The notes beneath the pieces are model-generated. The model had not been told where the DNA came from and did not search any database. It worked only from the letters and a program-made list of their open reading frames with translations. From a virus, in the UHGV virus genome UHGV-1789659: a stretch of DNA of 47,750 nt. One strand, 5' to 3'. A program made the position numbers and the translations under genes. Each line of letters begins with the position of its first letter. Positions within the stretch are counted from its first letter, which is position 1. Shown here in pieces: positions 14,424-47,433 of this stretch.

Positions 14424-14807
14424 GTGTTTATCGAAGCGTTTGCAAGTTTGATGCAGAAGGCAAAGATTGGCACGGTCGGGACTGACATTTTCTGTCACTA
14501 CTTGCCTGCCAATGTGAAATCTGGCGTCCTGCTTATTAACCCAAATACCGGCATCAGCATCGATCATGAGCTACAGGGCTTTTATCACGAATCATTCACA
14601 ATCATTGTGCGTGGTTCGTCAATTACTACGACGGTTGATAAAGCCAATAAAATCATTGAGATGTTTCCAGTAGAGGAAACGGAATCTGGTGGTGTTTATT
14701 TTCGACTTGTACGACCGATGGCGATGCCAATCATTTATCCCAAAAATGATGGGGCATTAATAGAAGCAGGCATTCCTGTTGAATTTGCTGGCTATTTATT
14801 GAATTAA
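14424..14807 (+). CDS. putative tail terminator (U-like by position); GTG start after GAGAGG
   Basis: ORF track opens at a TTG (14301) overlapping the previous gene by 120 nt; the in-frame GTG at 14424 has a 5-nt spacer to the RBS. Confidence 0.4.
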   Translation: MFIEAFASLMQKAKIGTVGTDIFCHYLPANVKSGVLLINPNTGISIDHELQGFYHESFTIIVRGSSITTTVDKANKIIEMFPVEETESGGVYFRLVRPMAMPIIYPKNDGALIEAGIPVEFAGYLLN

Positions 14808-14814
14808 GTTAATC

Positions 14815-14832
14815 GGTAAGTATATACTTACC
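14815..14832 (+). promoter_or_regulatory. GGTAAGTATATACTTACC perfect 18-bp palindrome
   Basis: GATAAGTA-family motif upstream of the major tail gene. Confidence 0.4.
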
Positions 14833-14881
14833 ATTAGCGCAATGAATGCGTAGAATTAACGGAAAAAGGAGTTTTCCATCA

Positions 14882-15628
14882 ATGTCTAATACCCATGTAA
14901 AAAACATCAAACTTGGTGCCTGTAAGGTGTCGTTTGGTGGTGTGGATTTGGGTTACACCAAAGGTGGTGTTCAGGTTGAAGTAGCCACTGAAACGCAGAA
15001 AATCACCGTTGACCAGAGAGGTCAAACCGTAGTCTCAGAAGTAGTTATGGGGCGTAACATTACCATTACCGCACCTCTGGCCGAATCTGTGCTCCGAAAC
15101 ATGGTTGACCTGATGCCCGGTTCTACTCTGAGCGAAGATGACAACTCTGTCACGATCACATCTGCTCAGGGCGTAAACCTGATGGATGTAGCGAAGGAGC
15201 TGGTTCTGACTCCGCAGGACACCACCGACTATGTGTTGACCATTCCGAAAGCGGCAACCGCGGGCAACTTCACTATGACCTACCAGTCTGATGATGTTCG
15301 TGTGTTCTCTGTTCAGTTCAGCGCATACCCGGATGATGAAGGCGTTCTGGGCAAAATGAGCGGTCCCAAACCGGTAAAAACTGTGACGATCACACCGGAA
15401 TCTCCAACCGTAAAAGCTGGAGAAACTGTGCAACTGACAGCCGAAATCACTCCAGCTGATGCCGCAGACAAAACCGGTGTTTGGGAATCTGAAGACCAGG
15501 AAAAGGCCACGGTAGATCAAACGGGTCTTGTGCGTGGTGTGGTGCAGGGTACTGCAAACATCTCCTTCACCAGCAATAGCGGTGCTAAGAAGGCAACTAA
15601 GTCAGTAACGATTAACTCCGCAGATTAA
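14882..15628 (+). CDS. major tail protein with C-terminal Big_2 Ig-like domain
   Basis: ATG at 14882 after AAAAGGAG; C-terminal 80 aa carry the Big_2 pattern; sits immediately before the chaperone and tape-measure genes. Confidence 0.7.
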   Translation: MSNTHVKNIKLGACKVSFGGVDLGYTKGGVQVEVATETQKITVDQRGQTVVSEVVMGRNITITAPLAESVLRNMVDLMPGSTLSEDDNSVTITSAQGVNLMDVAKELVLTPQDTTDYVLTIPKAATAGNFTMTYQSDDVRVFSVQFSAYPDDEGVLGKMSGPKPVKTVTITPESPTVKAGETVQLTAEITPADAADKTGVWESEDQEKATVDQTGLVRGVVQGTANISFTSNSGAKKATKSVTINSAD

Positions 15629-15641
15629 TCAGTAATTAAGC

Positions 15642-15668
15642 AGAGGCTCAGGATGAGCCTCTCTTTTA
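15642..15668 (+). terminator. stem-loop terminator after the major tail gene
   Basis: AGAGGCTCA-GGA-TGAGCCTCT followed by CTTTTAAAA. Confidence 0.5.
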
Positions 15669-15683
15669 AAAGGATTTTAACCA

Positions 15684-16001
15684 ATGACCAAATTACTCGA
15701 TCTCGATTCCATTCTGCCTCCGAAGAAAAGTATCAAATTTGGCGGTCAGGAATATCCCATCGTTGAAATGACGGTAGGTCTGTTCGTTTCCATCAAGCAG
15801 ATGGAAGGTAAAGATCTCATGAACATGTCTCCTGTTGAGCAAGTGACAGCTTATGCAGATCTGGTTCGTAAGGTTATCCCTTCAGTACCTGACGAAGTTC
15901 TTGAAAAACTGACTGTTCCGCAACTCCAGCAGATCTTCACCTTCGCTATGGAAGTGATTGATGAAGAAAACGAAAAAGCGGCTGGCGAAGGGGCAAAGTA
16001 A
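15684..16001 (+). CDS. tail assembly chaperone (G-like)
   Basis: 105-aa acidic protein directly upstream of the tape measure; a -1 frame ORF overlaps its 3-prime end. Confidence 0.6.
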   Translation: MTKLLDLDSILPPKKSIKFGGQEYPIVEMTVGLFVSIKQMEGKDLMNMSPVEQVTAYADLVRKVIPSVPDEVLEKLTVPQLQQIFTFAMEVIDEENEKAAGEGAK

Positions 16002-16351
16002 TTTCCCGCGATGAATCCGGGACAAGGACCGTTTCAATAGATCTCGGATTCTATTTCAGTCGTGTAGTTGCTCACTACGCTGTGTCGCCATTAGAGCTAT
16101 TGAACATCCCTCTCACGATGTTCTGGATGCTCAGTCGCAATATAGACCGTCTGCGTGCGGAAGAGGATGTCCGCAACTTACAAGTCGCTCGTGCGTCCCA
16201 GGCGGATGGCGAGGCTGTGAAGGCGTTCATGGAGGGTTTGCAACTCAGGATTGGAAGACCAGTCGTAACAGATAAAGTCTACGATCCAAGCCAGGATAAG
16301 GCAGACCCTGACGCCAAAGAGCAACTGATGCAAATATTTGGCAGAGGATGA
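15965..16351 (+). other. -1 frame ORF overlapping the chaperone 3-prime end; putative G-T frameshift extension
   Basis: The -1 frame is open from 15965 to the stop at 16351, overlapping frame 0 for 34 nt; an A5 run (GAAAAAG, 15972-15978) lies in the overlap. Confidence 0.5.
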
Positions 16352-16358
16352 CAAGGGA

Positions 16359-19300
16359 ATGTCACAAAACGTAGAGTTTATCCTGTCGCTGGAAGACAAA
16401 CAGTTTACAGCGTCAATCGATCGTGCGGGGAAACTGCTTACTCGATTTGGTGAGCAGGTAACAAAGCCTGCTCAAAAAATCCAAACCTTTGAACGCTCTT
16501 TGGGTTCGGTCGCCCGTATCATTGGCGTTCTGGAAAGCAAGCTCGATTCTACGGCAGATAAACTACAGGATGTAGCTGCCGGTTTTGAGCTTGCTTCAGA
16601 TGCTACGCGTAAAATGCGTGGCAACATCACCAGCCTCAATTCTGGTCTTAAAGCCCTGATTGAGCGCGTCGATACGACAACTTCTTCAGTAGATAAACTC
16701 ACCGCGTCATTACGTAAAGTGCAATCAGAGCTAAATGATTTCTCTGATTGGGCGACCTATGCAAGCAAAAGCGCAAGCCGCTTTGGTACGGAGGTCAAAG
16801 AAGCCTCTGCGTCCGTGAGTGGCATGAATACGCGCCTTAATACCACGACGAAGCGACTCAGTAATTGGGGTGTCACAACGAGTCAGGCTGCCGAGGGACT
16901 GAAAAAGGTTCGTGAGCAGATGGACGAAGTTATCGGACGTCAGCAACTGATTAGCAAGCCGGTACGCGTTCGTACATCTGGAAGTGGCGATGGTGGTAGC
17001 GGGCAGCGTAGCGGCAGTTCTGGTCACAGCGGTAAAAATAACGAAGGAGGTATGTTCTCTGGCCTTCGTGGCAACATTTTCCTGCTTGGCGAGATCGGAG
17101 ATGCAGCCAGAACGGTTACTGACATCATGTTTGGGTGGCAGAAGCCTATTGTTGAAGCTGCGGCCGAAATGGAGCGTATGCGGGTGATGCTTCGAGGGTT
17201 GAATAAGGAGAAGTCCAACCCTGGCCAGGCTGCCGCTGATGATATGAAGTACATCGTAGACATGGCTCAAAATGCGCCGTTCGCGATGCAGGCGTTAACA
17301 GATTCCTTCGTGAAGTTTCGTTCTGCTGGCTTAGATCCAACCGATGGTTCTCTGAAGGCGCTGGTGGACTCCGTTGCTCGTTTTGGTGGTGATAGTGAGC
17401 TGTTGAAACGTGCGGCTGTGGCCGTTCAGCAGATGTCCGGTAAGGGCGTCGTGTCAATGGAAGAGCTACGTCAGCAATTAGGTGAAGCCGTTCCTAACGC
17501 GATGCAGGCAATGGCAGACGCCGCAGGCATCACTATGGGGGAACTGACTAAAGCCGTTGCCAGCGGTACGGTTGAGGCAAAACAGGCGTTGTCTCTGATG
17601 TTTGTTGGTCTGCGTGCGGAGAATGAGAACGCAGCGAAAGACATGATGCAAACCTACACAGGTGCGCTGGCGCAACTTCAGACGTCATTCACGTTATTTG
17701 CTGATCGGGTTGGTCAGGCCGGATATCTGGATTCTCTATCGAAGGGGATGAAAGAACTGGTTTCAATCATGAATAGCGCCGAAGGGATTTCGTTTGCCAA
17801 TTCTTTAGGCTCGGGGTTAACGACGGCAATCGATGGGTTGCGTCAGCTTGCTCAATGGTTAGCAAAGAACCAAGAGCTGGTAATTAATCTCGGTAAGGTC
17901 GTGGCCGCGATGGTTGCGTTCAAACTGATGCGAGCAGGGATCATGGGGGTAGTTGGCGCTGGCAGCCAGATGGTTAGCACCTTTGCCACGATGGCGACCG
18001 CCATACAGACTCCATTTAACCTCGGCGCTACAGCAGTAACTCGATTCAATCGTGCGGCACGTATGGGGCTGGCTCCGATCCCCTCTCTTATTTTCGCCAT
18101 CCGTGGGGCGATTACGGGGCTTAAAGGCGCTTTTGCTGGCTTGACTGCGTTTATTGCGGCGAATCCGATAGGTTTTGTTTTCACTGCTGCAATGACCGCT
18201 GTTGCTGGCTTAATCACGTATATGACCATGCTTCGTAGCGAAACTTCAAAGGTCGTTGACGAGATTAGGAAAATACCAGAAGCGATGACGGCGGCCAAAC
18301 GTGCACAGATGGCGGAGTATAAAGCGCGTCTCGAGCAACAAATCACGCAAAAGGAACAACAGTTAAAATCTGGCGAAAAGGTGGTTTATGGGCCGGGTAT
18401 GGCCGGAACCACAGTAAAGATTGATCAGGATGAACGGAAGCGAATAGAAACTGGGCTAAATGATCTTCGTAAGGAACTCGATAAAACTACTGGGGCTATT
18501 GAACGTGGAGACACAGCTGTTGCAAAACGTCTTGCAAAAGATGCGGCAGAATCACAGATAGAGAAAATACTCGAAGAGAATAAAGACTTTGCGGCAACAT
18601 TCGTTAAATCTCGTCAGGAGGCTCTGGAGAAGATTCAGAAAATCAAGGATGACGGTTCACTTTCAGATGACGAAAAGAACAAGCTATTGGCACCGTTACG
18701 TGAAACGGTAAACAAAAGCTATCTGAAACCAGCGCAAGAATTGATTGATTCACTTTCTTCTCGTAAGAATGCTGTCGAGGGGCAAATAGCCACTCTTAAT
18801 GATCAGCTTGAAAAAGCGAAAAGGGAAGGAAACACCGAGCAGATCAAGAAACTGCAAGGCAGTATTCGTGGTTATCAGGAGAATTTGGAAGTCGTCGCTC
18901 AGGAACTGACTCAGGCAGAGTTTAAGAGGGATAACGCGGCCAAAAGTGGTAATGGCTTAGTGTCAATCAATGGAGATGTTCTGGGGTTAGGTACAACTGA
19001 TAAAGCTGCTCAGAAGGCGCTGGCGCAATATATGCGAAACCAGATGGATTCTGCGACTTATCAGCGTACTTTGCCTGACGGCACTCCGATGATGGACTTC
19101 GAAGGTAAGCCGATTATTGGGCCTAAACAACTCAAGACGCAGCTTAATTTGCAGAAAGCATCCAGTGCCAGCTCTCTGGAGAAAATGAGCGATGAAGAGC
19201 GTGCCGCAGCCATTGCTGCACTGACTAAAGCTCGTGAACAGGATGCAGCAGCAGCCGAGAAAGCAGCCCAACGATCAGCTAACGCCTCGCAGCGTGCGGC

Positions 19301-20918
19301 CAAGAAGGAACAGGCAGCGCAACAGAAACTGGCAGCCGGATACCAGAAGGCTCTGGACAAAGCCGATCAGCTTATGGGGCAAATGGGTGAAAGCTCTAAG
19401 GCTACGGTATCGTTTGATCAGTCTCTTCGCGATACAACGAAATCGCTGACAGATTTGGCTAATGCGGTTCCTAACGAGTTCATCACTCAAGAGATGATCG
19501 ACAAGGCGAAAAAACGTCTTGAGGACCTCAAAAATGCGACACCTGAATATCGCGAGATGTTTAATCGCCGCAATGTTGAGCAGATGATCTCCACTTGGGC
19601 ACCGGAGGCGGATTCCATTATTAGTGCTGGCTATACGCCGTCTCGTGAAGAGAAAGTTGCTGATTTCGAAGACACTTACAACCGCAATCTCAAAGCGTTG
19701 ATAGAACTTCGTGATAAGGCGTCTGATCCTAAAGTTGTGGCGCTTTATACAAAGAAAATCAATCAACTTATTGCTGCTGGCAATACCGCGCTTATTAAAG
19801 AGACGGGGACCGCGACGCAGAAGTTGGCACTGGAATACGAAAACCTGGCAGAGCAGATCGAAAGCACCTGGACTGATTTGTTTAGTGGCTTAACGGATGT
19901 TCTGACTGATTTCGTTATTAACGGAAAGATGAGCTTCTCCAGCCTGTCTCAGTCCATTTTGAAAGATATCACCAATATGGTCGTGAAGTCGCAGATCACG
20001 CTGCCTCTAATGAACATGTTGGGGATGGGAACCACCGCAGCTGGTAGTTCACAGAGTGGTAATTTGCTGACCGGGGTTGCTTCCGCCGTTGCCAATCAAG
20101 GGGTACGAATGGGCAACACTGTTAACGGCGACAAGTCGGTAGGAGAAGCCACGAAGGAGACGTCCAGTTCGGTAACTGGATTGGGGCAAACAACACAGCA
20201 GACCACCAGCGCAATTGGCACTGCAACAAATGCGATTGGTAGCTGGGTATCAGGGCTATTTGATAGCACTGAAGCCAAAGATGCCGAGACAAAAGCCGTG
20301 AAGGACTCCATCTTCTCGATGCAGAACCTCAGCTCTGTTACCGGCGCGTTGTCTGCCGCGTTTGCAATGCTTGGAGCTAATGCTTCCGGCTCTGGTAATA
20401 AGTGGTTGAGTTTTGGAGCAACGGTTGCATCTGGTCTTGTTTCAGCTTGGGCTGGCGGTGGTTTCGACAGCGTGACATCAAGCTCTGCTAAAACCGCAAC
20501 CAGCAGTGTGGCTGACGGAACTAAAGGCATTCCTGCAATCCCGAAGTTTGCAAATGGAGGAATATTCGGAAAAGACGGCGTGATCCCGCTCCGGGCATAC
20601 CAGAAAGGCGGTATTGCTAACTCACCTCAATTGGCGTTGTTTGGGGAAGGTTCTATGAATGAGGCGTATGTTCCATTGCCTGATGGCCGAACAATCCCTG
20701 TAACGCTCAGTACCGATGGTATGAGTGGAGGAGGAAATGTTCTTTCTCCGGTATCAATTGAGATCAACGTCCATAGTGACGGTAGCACAACTGAATCCGG
20801 CGATACAGAAAGCATATGGAACAATGCCGCTCAACGGATGAAAGCAATCGCGCTTGAGACTATCGCGCAAGAGAAACGCCCTGGCGGATCACTCAACCCA
20901 AACACTCAACGTAACTAA
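16359..20918 (+). CDS. tail tape measure protein
   Basis: About 1520 aa, Ala/Gln/Lys-rich helical sequence with hydrophobic segments; ATG at 16359 after AAGGGA (ORF track opens at an upstream TTG). Confidence 0.85.
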   Translation: MSQNVEFILSLEDKQFTASIDRAGKLLTRFGEQVTKPAQKIQTFERSLGSVARIIGVLESKLDSTADKLQDVAAGFELASDATRKMRGNITSLNSGLKALIERVDTTTSSVDKLTASLRKVQSELNDFSDWATYASKSASRFGTEVKEASASVSGMNTRLNTTTKRLSNWGVTTSQAAEGLKKVREQMDEVIGRQQLISKPVRVRTSGSGDGGSGQRSGSSGHSGKNNEGGMFSGLRGNIFLLGEIGDAARTVTDIMFGWQKPIVEAAAEMERMRVMLRGLNKEKSNPGQAAADDMKYIVDMAQNAPFAMQALTDSFVKFRSAGLDPTDGSLKALVDSVARFGGDSELLKRAAVAVQQMSGKGVVSMEELRQQLGEAVPNAMQAMADAAGITMGELTKAVASGTVEAKQALSLMFVGLRAENENAAKDMMQTYTGALAQLQTSFTLFADRVGQAGYLDSLSKGMKELVSIMNSAEGISFANSLGSGLTTAIDGLRQLAQWLAKNQELVINLGKVVAAMVAFKLMRAGIMGVVGAGSQMVSTFATMATAIQTPFNLGATAVTRFNRAARMGLAPIPSLIFAIRGAITGLKGAFAGLTAFIAANPIGFVFTAAMTAVAGLITYMTMLRSETSKVVDEIRKIPEAMTAAKRAQMAEYKARLEQQITQKEQQLKSGEKVVYGPGMAGTTVKIDQDERKRIETGLNDLRKELDKTTGAIERGDTAVAKRLAKDAAESQIEKILEENKDFAATFVKSRQEALEKIQKIKDDGSLSDDEKNKLLAPLRETVNKSYLKPAQELIDSLSSRKNAVEGQIATLNDQLEKAKREGNTEQIKKLQGSIRGYQENLEVVAQELTQAEFKRDNAAKSGNGLVSINGDVLGLGTTDKAAQKALAQYMRNQMDSATYQRTLPDGTPMMDFEGKPIIGPKQLKTQLNLQKASSASSLEKMSDEERAAAIAALTKAREQDAAAAEKAAQRSANASQRAAKKEQAAQQKLAAGYQKALDKADQLMGQMGESSKATVSFDQSLRDTTKSLTDLANAVPNEFITQEMIDKAKKRLEDLKNATPEYREMFNRRNVEQMISTWAPEADSIISAGYTPSREEKVADFEDTYNRNLKALIELRDKASDPKVVALYTKKINQLIAAGNTALIKETGTATQKLALEYENLAEQIESTWTDLFSGLTDVLTDFVINGKMSFSSLSQSILKDITNMVVKSQITLPLMNMLGMGTTAAGSSQSGNLLTGVASAVANQGVRMGNTVNGDKSVGEATKETSSSVTGLGQTTQQTTSAIGTATNAIGSWVSGLFDSTEAKDAETKAVKDSIFSMQNLSSVTGALSAAFAMLGANASGSGNKWLSFGATVASGLVSAWAGGGFDSVTSSSAKTATSSVADGTKGIPAIPKFANGGIFGKDGVIPLRAYQKGGIANSPQLALFGEGSMNEAYVPLPDGRTIPVTLSTDGMSGGGNVLSPVSIEINVHSDGSTTESGDTESIWNNAAQRMKAIALETIAQEKRPGGSLNPNTQRN

Positions 20919-46391: not shown

Positions 46392-46466
46392 GATGGTGTA
46401 GCTCAGCGGTAGAGCAGTTGGCTGTTAACCAACTGGTCGGTGGTTCGACTCCATCACTCCCCACCA
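46392..46466 (+). tRNA. tRNA-Asn(GTT)-like; acceptor stem pairs poorly, so possibly a pseudogene
   Basis: D-arm GCTC-AGCGGTA-GAGC, anticodon loop CTGTTAA, T-arm GGTGG-TTCGACT-CCATC, 3-prime ACTCCCC-A-CCA; 5-prime strand GATGGTG gives only 3 of 7 pairs. Confidence 0.5.
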
Positions 46467-46470
46467 AATT

Positions 46471-46546
46471 GCCGGTTTAGCTCAGTTGGTAGAGCAGTCG
46501 CTTTGTAAGCGAATGGCCAGCGGTTCGAGTCCGTTAACCGGCACCA
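46471..46546 (+). tRNA. tRNA-Thr(TGT)
   Basis: Acceptor GCCGGTT/AACCGGC pairs perfectly; D-arm GCTC...GAGC; anticodon loop TTTGTAA; T-arm AGCGG-TTCGAGT-CCGTT; encoded CCA. Confidence 0.8.
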
Positions 46547-47192
46547 ACATAATATTGAGAACATTGGCGTAACGGGGTCATATCCCAATCTATGAATAAA
46601 TGTTGCGTTGCCGCGTGACAACCAGTGTTCTCAACATTGTGGTGAATGCACAGGCTGATGTGCCGCAACTACAGTAGTGCGCGCTTTGCGGGGCTTGCTA
46701 CAACCCTGTGTCGGAGCTCAGCACCGACCATCACAATTTGGCTCTCTTGCAACAGCATAACGCTGGAATATGTCCAACCTGGTGCGGTCTGATCACCCGC
46801 CGTTAGCTCCACGAAACGGAGCGCACAACAGATAAGAGAACTTCCCATATGGGGCTTGTCTTAAATGCATCGAGTTCTCTTATCGCTGTGTCACAGACAA
46901 AATTCCGACAGCCCTGTTTATCATCGGACGCAACCTAAAAGGTCGAGGCAAAGCCAGGTAATAGCGGAGGGAGTGACACAGCACACAACAGGTAAGAGCA
47001 TTTTCAGAGTTCGACTCTCTGAGTTGCCATTCGTGGTGGCACGCGAGACGTGAATGCTCTTTCCGTTGTGGTGAATGTGGCTAAGCGCACGCGGGGAAAT
47101 GGTTATATTGATCATTTTATGACATCTGTGGCCCCGTTCACGGTGGATAACCAGCCAAAGGACACCGGGAGGCACCCGGCACCACAACAATT

Positions 47193-47278
47193 GGAGAGTA
47201 GGGAGCATGGTGCTCAAGCGGTCTTGAAAACCGCCCCATTGCGCAAGCGATGATGGTTCGATTCCATTACTCTCCGCC
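47193..47278 (+). tRNA. tRNA-Ser(TGA)-like with long variable arm
   Basis: Acceptor GGAGAGT/ACTCTCC, anticodon stem-loop GCGGT-CTTGAAA-ACCGC, T-loop TTCGATT, encoded CCA; D-arm spacing atypical. Confidence 0.6.
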
Positions 47279-47433
47279 AGACACAGCGTTGAGCGGTTTG
47301 GCCTTTTAATCACCCAGATTAAGACTCCGCTAACATAAACCAGACCGCTCAACGCTGTGATAGACAATTACGGCAGACGTTCTTAACCATAGCTTGCTAA
47401 CATCCTAGCAACACTTTTTTCAGCGCAAAATTC

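Follow-up and report, generated by a model that had tools for sequence, protein, structure and literature searches.

In phage lambda, the tail assembly chaperones gpG and gpGT are reportedly produced through a frameshift, a system said to have been worked out by Levin, Hendrix, and Casjens in 1993 and by Xu, Hendrix, and Duda in 2004, 2013, and 2014. The lambda site is the heptamer G_GGA_AAG, located several codons before the stop of G. A signal of another kind, the “shifty stop,” is said to go back to Weiss et al. in 1987 and to include the +1 shift of prfB at CUU_UGA; there, a slip-prone peptidyl-tRNA codon lies directly before a stop, and slow decoding of the stop could allow re-pairing. 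The lambda gpG/gpGT frameshift has been summarized elsewhere (PMC5009743), as has the use of a single tRNA-Lys for both lysine codons in roughly half of known bacteria, among them E. coli (PMC5009743).

Sites of -1 frameshifting built on the tetramer A_AAG have been described in IS1222 (G_CGA_AAG) and in Bacillus subtilis cdd (A_CGA_AAG) (Sharma et al. 2014; PMC4066793). At these sites, one tRNA-Lys re-pairs from AAG to AAA while the P-site codon cannot re-pair, and the sites depend on a stimulator (pseudoknot, hairpin, or Shine-Dalgarno sequence) placed at the standard distance. Of the -1 tetramers in E. coli, A_AAG shifts most readily, and A_AAA is far weaker; frameshifting at A_AAG reached up to 5.6% with a strong pseudoknot and was 0.147% against a background of 0.112% in reporters without a stimulator (PMC4066793).

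Here, we analyzed a 47,750-nt stretch of viral DNA (UHGV virus genome UHGV-1789659; referred to as the window), in which a short gene, here called G, is overlapped by an open reading frame (ORF) in the -1 frame, here called T. We consider it very probable, from comparison of homologous sequences, that a programmed -1 frameshift at A_AAG (positions 15995-15998) yields a G-T fusion of 222 aa. The locus resembles lambda in its two overlapping ORFs between the major tail and tape measure genes, the second in the -1 frame and without a start; in the proposed shift at a lysine AAG codon close to the 3′ end of G, with the long fusion the expected minority product; and possibly in a chaperone-like fold of G. 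It differs from lambda in that the P-site half of the site is GCA or GUA, so that only the tetramer A_AAG is present, and in that the stop follows immediately; furthermore, sequence similarity to lambda G or T is undetectable, and Pfam chaperone families give no significant match. As at IS1222 and cdd, one tRNA-Lys would re-pair from AAG to AAA, and the hosts here are enterobacteria, in which one tRNA-Lys reads both lysine codons. In the published descriptions consulted, the IS1222 and cdd sites have no directly adjoining zero-frame stop, unlike the site in the window, where the adjacent stop and a stem 11 to 14 nt away are the only conserved stimulator candidates. Nickievirus, RHEph10-like and V1VFA-like phages, and phage ANB28 share with the window the protein families phrog_893 and phrog_1131, the gene order, and the -1 overlap, but they carry canonical heptamers, whereas the window has a tetramer next to the stop.

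Gene order and annotation of the G/T region

Over positions 14800-17000, the window matches Escherichia phage Cyrano at 97.7% identity and Salmonella phage SSU5 at 84.7%. Segment 15684-16360 shares 100% identity with an E. coli plasmid and matches 786 plasmid records from Klebsiella, Escherichia, Enterobacter, Yersinia, Salmonella, Citrobacter, and Cronobacter, 763 of which are classified as non-mobilizable. Because of the identity to Cyrano and SSU5 and the plasmid-record matches, the window is identified as an SSU5-like phage-plasmid, a member of the group that includes pHCM2 and Yersinia pestis pMT1. In the annotated phage records examined and in the 786 plasmid records, G and T appear as two separate hypothetical proteins, and the distant homologous loci (Nickievirus, RHEph10-like, V1VFA-like, and ANB28) are likewise labeled only as hypothetical proteins. 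The families to which the G/T loci belong, phrog_893 and phrog_1131, are both of “unknown function,” and literature searches on SSU5 yielded no paper that connects the G/T locus with a frameshift or a tail assembly chaperone.

The features of the region are collected in Table 1. The gene order is major tail, G, T, and tape measure, such that two short ORFs lie between the major tail and tape measure genes, and the flanking genes fit a siphovirus tail module. From G to the tape measure gene, we found no terminator and no meaningful promoter. The -1 frame, closed by a TGA at 15962-15964, is open for 128 codons from 15965 to the TGA at 16349-16351, and thus from inside G to just before the tape measure gene; these limits, given in the original prediction, hold, as do its 34-nt overlap between the -1 ORF and G ahead of the G stop and its A5 run (GAAAAAG, 15972-15978) within that overlap. 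Base composition gives a probability of about 7e-4 for 128 open codons, and a chance opening of the frame is unlikely; the +1 frame is closed after 18 codons. The G/T arrangement recurs in homologues as distant as about 25-30% protein identity.

TABLE 1 Positions of tail genes and of the proposed frameshift features in the window
Feature	Position	Strand	Product	Details
Major tail protein, upstream neighbor	14882..15628	+		phrog_1280 and major-tail PHROGs; C-terminal Ig-like Big_2 (E 1.6e-24)
G gene, likely G-like tail assembly chaperone	15684..16001	+	105 aa, 11.7 kDa	ATG 15684, TAA 15999-16001; 3′ end ...GCA AAG TAA
Proposed shift site G_GCA_AAG	15992..15998	+		Putative functional core A_AAG 15995-15998
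Zero-frame stop UAA	15999..16001	+		Directly 3′ of the proposed shift codon
T segment, -1 frame	15998..16351	+	117 aa	GUA 15998 to stop TGA 16349-16351
Predicted G-T fusion	join(15684..15998,15998..16351)	+	222 aa, 24.9 kDa	Predicted junction ...AGEGAK|VISRDESG...
Candidate stem-loop	16013..16051	+		GAAUCCGGG (16013-16021) pairs with CUCGGAUUC (16043-16051); 9-11 bp
Tape measure protein, downstream neighbor	16359..20918	+	1519 aa	phrog_1292 (E 0); Pfam TMP_3, Tape_meas_lam_C

The boundaries of the neighboring genes follow from their ribosome-binding signals and from related records. The mechanical ORF of the major tail gene opens at ATG 14846, where Shine-Dalgarno pairing is absent (+1.3 kcal/mol). 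The true start is probably 14882 rather than 14846, given the strong Shine-Dalgarno sequence of ATG 14882 (-8.2 kcal/mol, spacing 9) and the fit to the gene of 747 nt annotated in Cyrano and SSU5. ATG 16359 is the tape measure start annotated in relatives, with a Shine-Dalgarno duplex of -5.8 kcal/mol located 10 nt upstream; a longer version starting at TTG 16338 is mechanically possible, and Shine-Dalgarno pairing there is weak. The T stop at 16349-16351 sits between the tape measure Shine-Dalgarno sequence (AGAGGA, 16343-16348) and its ATG, a tight spacing that points to possible coupling of tape measure translation with termination of G-T.

Profile searches gave little indication of what G is. 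The window G and T had no hit in Pfam, and a search with G, T, and seven homologues returned nothing above threshold, with Phage_TAC_7 below threshold (E 0.03-0.17) in three of the seven homologues. A profile of 16 G sequences found no chaperone among PDB sequences. The structures 3FGX and 2OB9 have been treated as chaperones (PMC9603447), and HK97 2OB9, 3FGX, and 3KLU exemplify the tail assembly chaperone fold. The AlphaFold2 model of G (pLDDT 72.6) is a beta-hairpin followed by helices. Its best match in BFVD is a “Tail assembly chaperone” (E 5.2e-4), and chaperones make up the majority of the named proteins among its top 50 BFVD matches. From the model comparison together with gene position, G is likely a tail assembly chaperone, an assignment for which the fold alone is no proof.

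Evidence for translation of the -1 frame past the G stop

We compared the locus across 98 SSU5-like copies and ten distant relatives from Pseudomonas, Rhizobium, and Stenotrophomonas phages. A tblastn search with the 128-aa -1 ORF gave end-to-end matches in all SSU5-like elements. At about 27-37% identity, it also reached Pseudomonas Nickievirus phages, Rhizobium phages (RHEph10-like ones among them), and the Stenotrophomonas phage ANB28. Full-length conservation, with the 39 codons ahead of GTG 16082 included, holds in the SSU5-like elements and likewise in the Nickievirus, RHEph10-like, and Stenotrophomonas phages. In most of the records from distant phages, the match covers two annotated “hypothetical proteins.” Within the T alignment, D15 is invariant and F18, R22, and Y27 are near-invariant, and all of these precede residue 29, which in the window corresponds to GTG 16082; the T-frame sequence ahead of this residue (V29) includes TVSIDLGFYFSR. 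The overlap between G and T was checked in 19 loci, 78 further loci from IMG/VR, and the 10 distant loci, and was found in every one of them.

Two contigs with an enterobacterial phage-plasmid tail region are filed under other names: L016 (JAEWTL010000011.1, “MAG: Bacillota bacterium”) and L019 (DALYYK010000001.1, “Candidatus Fimivivens sp.”), in which T-protein identity is 93% and 82%, respectively. Both are more probably phage-plasmid contigs that were binned wrongly than elements of Firmicutes.

Substitutions were counted by codon position over 19 distinct SSU5-like sequences, where position 2 of the G frame equals position 3 of the -1 frame. At G-frame positions 1, 2, and 3, respectively, there were 97, 61, and 172 substitutions in the body of G (15684-15962); 3, 5, and 14 in the overlap (15963-16001); 9, 33, and 13 in the linker (16002-16081); and 34, 115, and 50 in the rest of T (16127-16348). 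The periodicity follows the G frame through the overlap and the -1 frame in the linker and T, with the switch located exactly at the G stop.

These data bear on one alternative, in which there is no frameshift and T is an independent small protein that starts at GTG 16082 or at ATG 16118 or 16127. The separate listing of two hypothetical proteins in every annotated record is in keeping with such a protein, as is the extent of phrog_1131, which models just the part of T past the candidate starts. However, Shine-Dalgarno pairing is absent at all three starts (+0.6 kcal/mol at GTG 16082, +0.4 at ATG 16118, and -0.9 at ATG 16127; the value for G is -5.4 kcal/mol), and annotators have made three different choices of T start. 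GTG 16082, the first ATG, GTG, or TTG of the -1 frame and the codon for residue 29 past the junction, is replaced by Ile or Asp in relatives; M44 alone is semi-conserved, and a start there would drop the invariant residues D15, F42, and W43. Since the region from 16002 to 16081 also shows the substitution pattern of -1-frame coding sequence and is retained in distant phages, and since the distant homologues carry canonical heptamers, we regard independent initiation of T as very unlikely. In every member tested, the phrog_1131 profile starts 27 to 44 residues past the frameshift junction; the ORFs that went into it had evidently been cut short at false starts. In Pseudomonas phage Nican01, the T ORF (L007, 1642-1872) is labeled “lnt: apolipoprotein N-acyltransferase,” which looks like a misannotation.

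A canonical in-frame heptamer lies inside the overlap in all ten of the distant homologous loci, which amount to about five independent lineages: C_CCA_AAG in nickie, ZY21, and Nican01; G_GGA_AAA in hairong; G_GGA_AAC in RHEph10, Y2_11, and N1_10; G_GGA_AAG in V1VFA-S and B1VFA; and A_AAA_AAA in ANB28. By chance, an in-frame heptamer would be expected in a few percent of such short overlaps. The heptamers are located 1 to about 10 codons ahead of the stop. The corresponding overlap of Stenotrophomonas phage ANB28 includes an A8 run (L010, 1519-1528; GAAAAAAAAG), where slippage could conceivably be transcriptional as well as ribosomal (on A_AAA_AAA). When the 222-aa fusion was used as a protein query, the six hits were for the most part metagenome ORFs that were chimeric or full of errors, and none was a natural G-T fusion in a single frame.

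The comparative evidence therefore supports well the original prediction that a -1 frameshift of the G/G-T type gives a fusion product of about 220 aa, encoded just ahead of the tape measure gene. That part of its interpretation stands; the slip site that it named does not.

Probable position of the shift and candidate stimulators

The site first put forward was the A5 run, with a -1 shift at GAAAAAG (15972..15978, plus strand) and a junction 8 codons earlier (...EENEK|SGWRRGKVISR...). The run is inside the 34-nt overlap of the window, and a single tRNA-Lys could re-pair there from AAA to AAA. Read in the G frame as GAA_AAA_GCG, the run does not have the register that tandem slippage requires and thus forms no X_XXY_YYZ heptamer; A_AAA is, moreover, the far weaker tetramer in the E. 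coli work cited above. In many relatives, a -1-frame TGA stands between the run and T. This TGA is present in the SSU5, pHCM2, Y. pestis pMT1, Kluyvera, Cronobacter, and K. oxytoca copies and in 31 of the 78 IMG/VR copies; it arises by the synonymous change GGC>GGT and leaves an overlap of 10 nt. In Photorhabdus, two Klebsiella lineages, and Providencia, the run is replaced by GAAGCCG or GAAGAAC, and GAAAAAG is missing from loci L021, L024, L025, L026, and L109. Because of the TGA past the run, the loss of the run in relatives, and the G-frame pattern of substitutions in the overlap, the alignments indicate that the shift must lie in the last codons of G, where A_AAG and the stop codon are invariant. 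We consider a shift at the A5 run highly improbable.

One record reads exactly the junction expected from the A5 run. P0001 (ENA; contig of 111,509 bp) encodes a 139-aa protein that passes from G into the -1 frame after ...EENEK, with A5 read as A4. The fusion in this record arises from a 1-nt deletion at the DNA level, in a contig with more frame breaks, and the frame breaks again after SIDL. It most likely reflects homopolymer sequencing errors rather than a natural G-T fusion.

The end of G has the form xxA_AAG followed by UAA or UAG, with no codon between, in each of the 98 SSU5-like copies, which comprise 24 distinct sequences over 90 nt; the codons are GCA or GTA, then AAG, and then TAA or TAG. 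Codons 104 and 105 do not vary at their third positions, which belong to the only 9 invariant ones among the 105 in the G frame, and all four synonyms are seen at the Gly codon adjoining the slip site. Within the 10-nt overlap of the SSU5-type copies, A_AAG is the sole slip-capable element; it is also the only conserved one. AAG is a zero-frame codon (GCA_AAG, 15993-15998), so its cognate tRNA-Lys could re-pair on AAA. Neither the window overlap nor any SSU5-like copy contains a canonical X_XXY_YYZ heptamer, and only the tetramer Z_ZZN A_AAG is present. The window has three tRNA genes, located at 46393-47279 (Asn-GTT, Thr-TGT, and Ser-TGA), and no tRNA-Lys gene; decoding of lysine at the shift site therefore depends on host tRNA.

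A second way to reach T at this position is termination at the G stop followed by a restart, with the ribosome still on the mRNA, at the near-cognate AUU codon at 16001-16003, which would make a separate T protein of about 116 aa. AUU can serve as a weak start in E. coli. Such reinitiation would agree with conservation of the -1 frame just from the G stop on and with a stop that is always directly adjacent. Among the copies, however, the codon varies between AUU, AUA, GUU, and GUA, so there is no conserved reinitiation start, and the only Shine-Dalgarno sequence ahead of it is the non-conserved GAAGGGG. Reinitiation also leaves the invariance of the synonymous A_AAG unexplained, and the distant homologues use heptamers several codons ahead of the stop. 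On this evidence, we judge reinitiation very unlikely.

A third alternative is transcriptional slippage, in which RNA polymerase drops one A and some mRNAs encode G-T in a single frame. Productive transcriptional slippage is known at runs of about 7 to 9 or more (reviewed in PMC5009743). The outcome at the protein level would be the same, and the process is conceivable at the A8 run of the Stenotrophomonas relative, but the window offers only runs of A5 and A3, the former of which is excluded by the downstream TGA in relatives. We consider this explanation exceedingly improbable for the window.

Frameshifting at A_AAG alone was about at background in the E. coli reporters, and a stimulator would thus be needed. 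The adjoining stop may be part of the signal, through an A site that is slow to decode. A stem-loop at 16013-16051 (Table 1), which begins 14 nt past the AAG codon and 11 nt past the UAA, is a possible second component. It is present in both the minimum free energy (MFE) and centroid folds and was independently predicted by RNAalifold. Across 10 distinct sequences, 95.6% of the cells are paired, with compensatory changes at two pairs, and further sequence variants are wobble-compatible; 5 of 500 shuffles did equally well. The folding z-score of the region is -0.02, both arms also encode conserved residues (ESG and LGF), two of the pairs are broken in Providencia, and the spacing of 11 to 14 nt compares with a usual 5 to 9 nt. 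We regard this conserved stem as a possible stimulator, on the basis of its pairing pattern.

Three other elements were considered as stimulators and set aside. A hairpin at 16004-16022 (UCCCG/CGGGA) has the textbook spacing of 5 nt; it shows no covariation, and its outer pairs are broken in 3 to 4 of the 10 sequences. The upstream GAAGGGG, a candidate Shine-Dalgarno-like stimulator, is GAAGAAG or GAAGACG elsewhere and is also too near the site, against a spacing of about 10 to 14 nt for such elements. RNAalifold further predicted an outer helix that pairs GGGCAA (15991-15996), which overlaps the shift site, with UUGCUC some 80 nt downstream (16074-16079), with three compensatory and two broken cases: GGG changes to GAA in three divergent copies, in which the partner CUC becomes CUU, and two other copies break the pair. 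It is not counted as a stimulator because its 5′ strand would be inside the ribosome at the time of the slip.

Proposed mechanism and significance

For the frameshift at A_AAG, which we favor, we propose the following course. The majority of ribosomes would make G (105 aa) and terminate at the UAA at 15999-16001, while a minority would shift by -1 at the last sense codon of G. The single enterobacterial tRNA-Lys (anticodon UUU) would move from AAG (15996-15998) to re-pair with AAA (15995-15997); slippage would involve this single tRNA because the P-site codon, GCA or GUA, cannot re-pair. GUA (15998-16000) would be read next, and the ribosome would stay in the -1 frame until the TGA at 16349-16351, giving the 222-aa G-T protein. 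By analogy with lambda gpG and gpGT, G and the G part of G-T would coat the tape measure protein, the T part would recruit the major tail protein, and both G and G-T would be absent from the virion.

As for the moment of the slip, we favor, over a slip in the A site, a model in which peptidyl-tRNA-Lys slips from the P site before a release factor has reached the UAA or UAG, because the stop abuts the site in every SSU5-like copy and the heptamer lies earlier in the distant relatives. Tentatively, the SSU5 clade might have exchanged an ancestral heptamer for a -1 “shifty stop” made of a bare A_AAG and an adjacent UAA or UAG, perhaps helped by the stem. Classic shifty stops give +1 shifts, and a -1 shift driven in this way at a tail chaperone gene is what we infer here.

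We thus read the locus as the lambda G/GT strategy in a protein family so far unlabeled, with a tetranucleotide-plus-stop signal in place of a heptamer. A frameshift as such is expected for a siphovirus tail module, yet it is unannotated across a very large family, and only the variant of the signal is mildly surprising. A signal of A_AAG plus stop falls in a known blind spot of heptamer-based frameshift predictors. The minimal A_AAG abutting a stop would be a clean natural example and a convenient test case for competition between termination and -1 slippage. If the shifty-stop reading is true, the ratio of G to G-T would be set by that competition and would be responsive to release-factor activity or growth state, and this would apply to hundreds of enterobacterial phage-plasmids. 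The right annotation would name two genes of the SSU5-like phage-plasmids, including those of Yersinia pestis pMT1 and Salmonella Typhi pHCM2.
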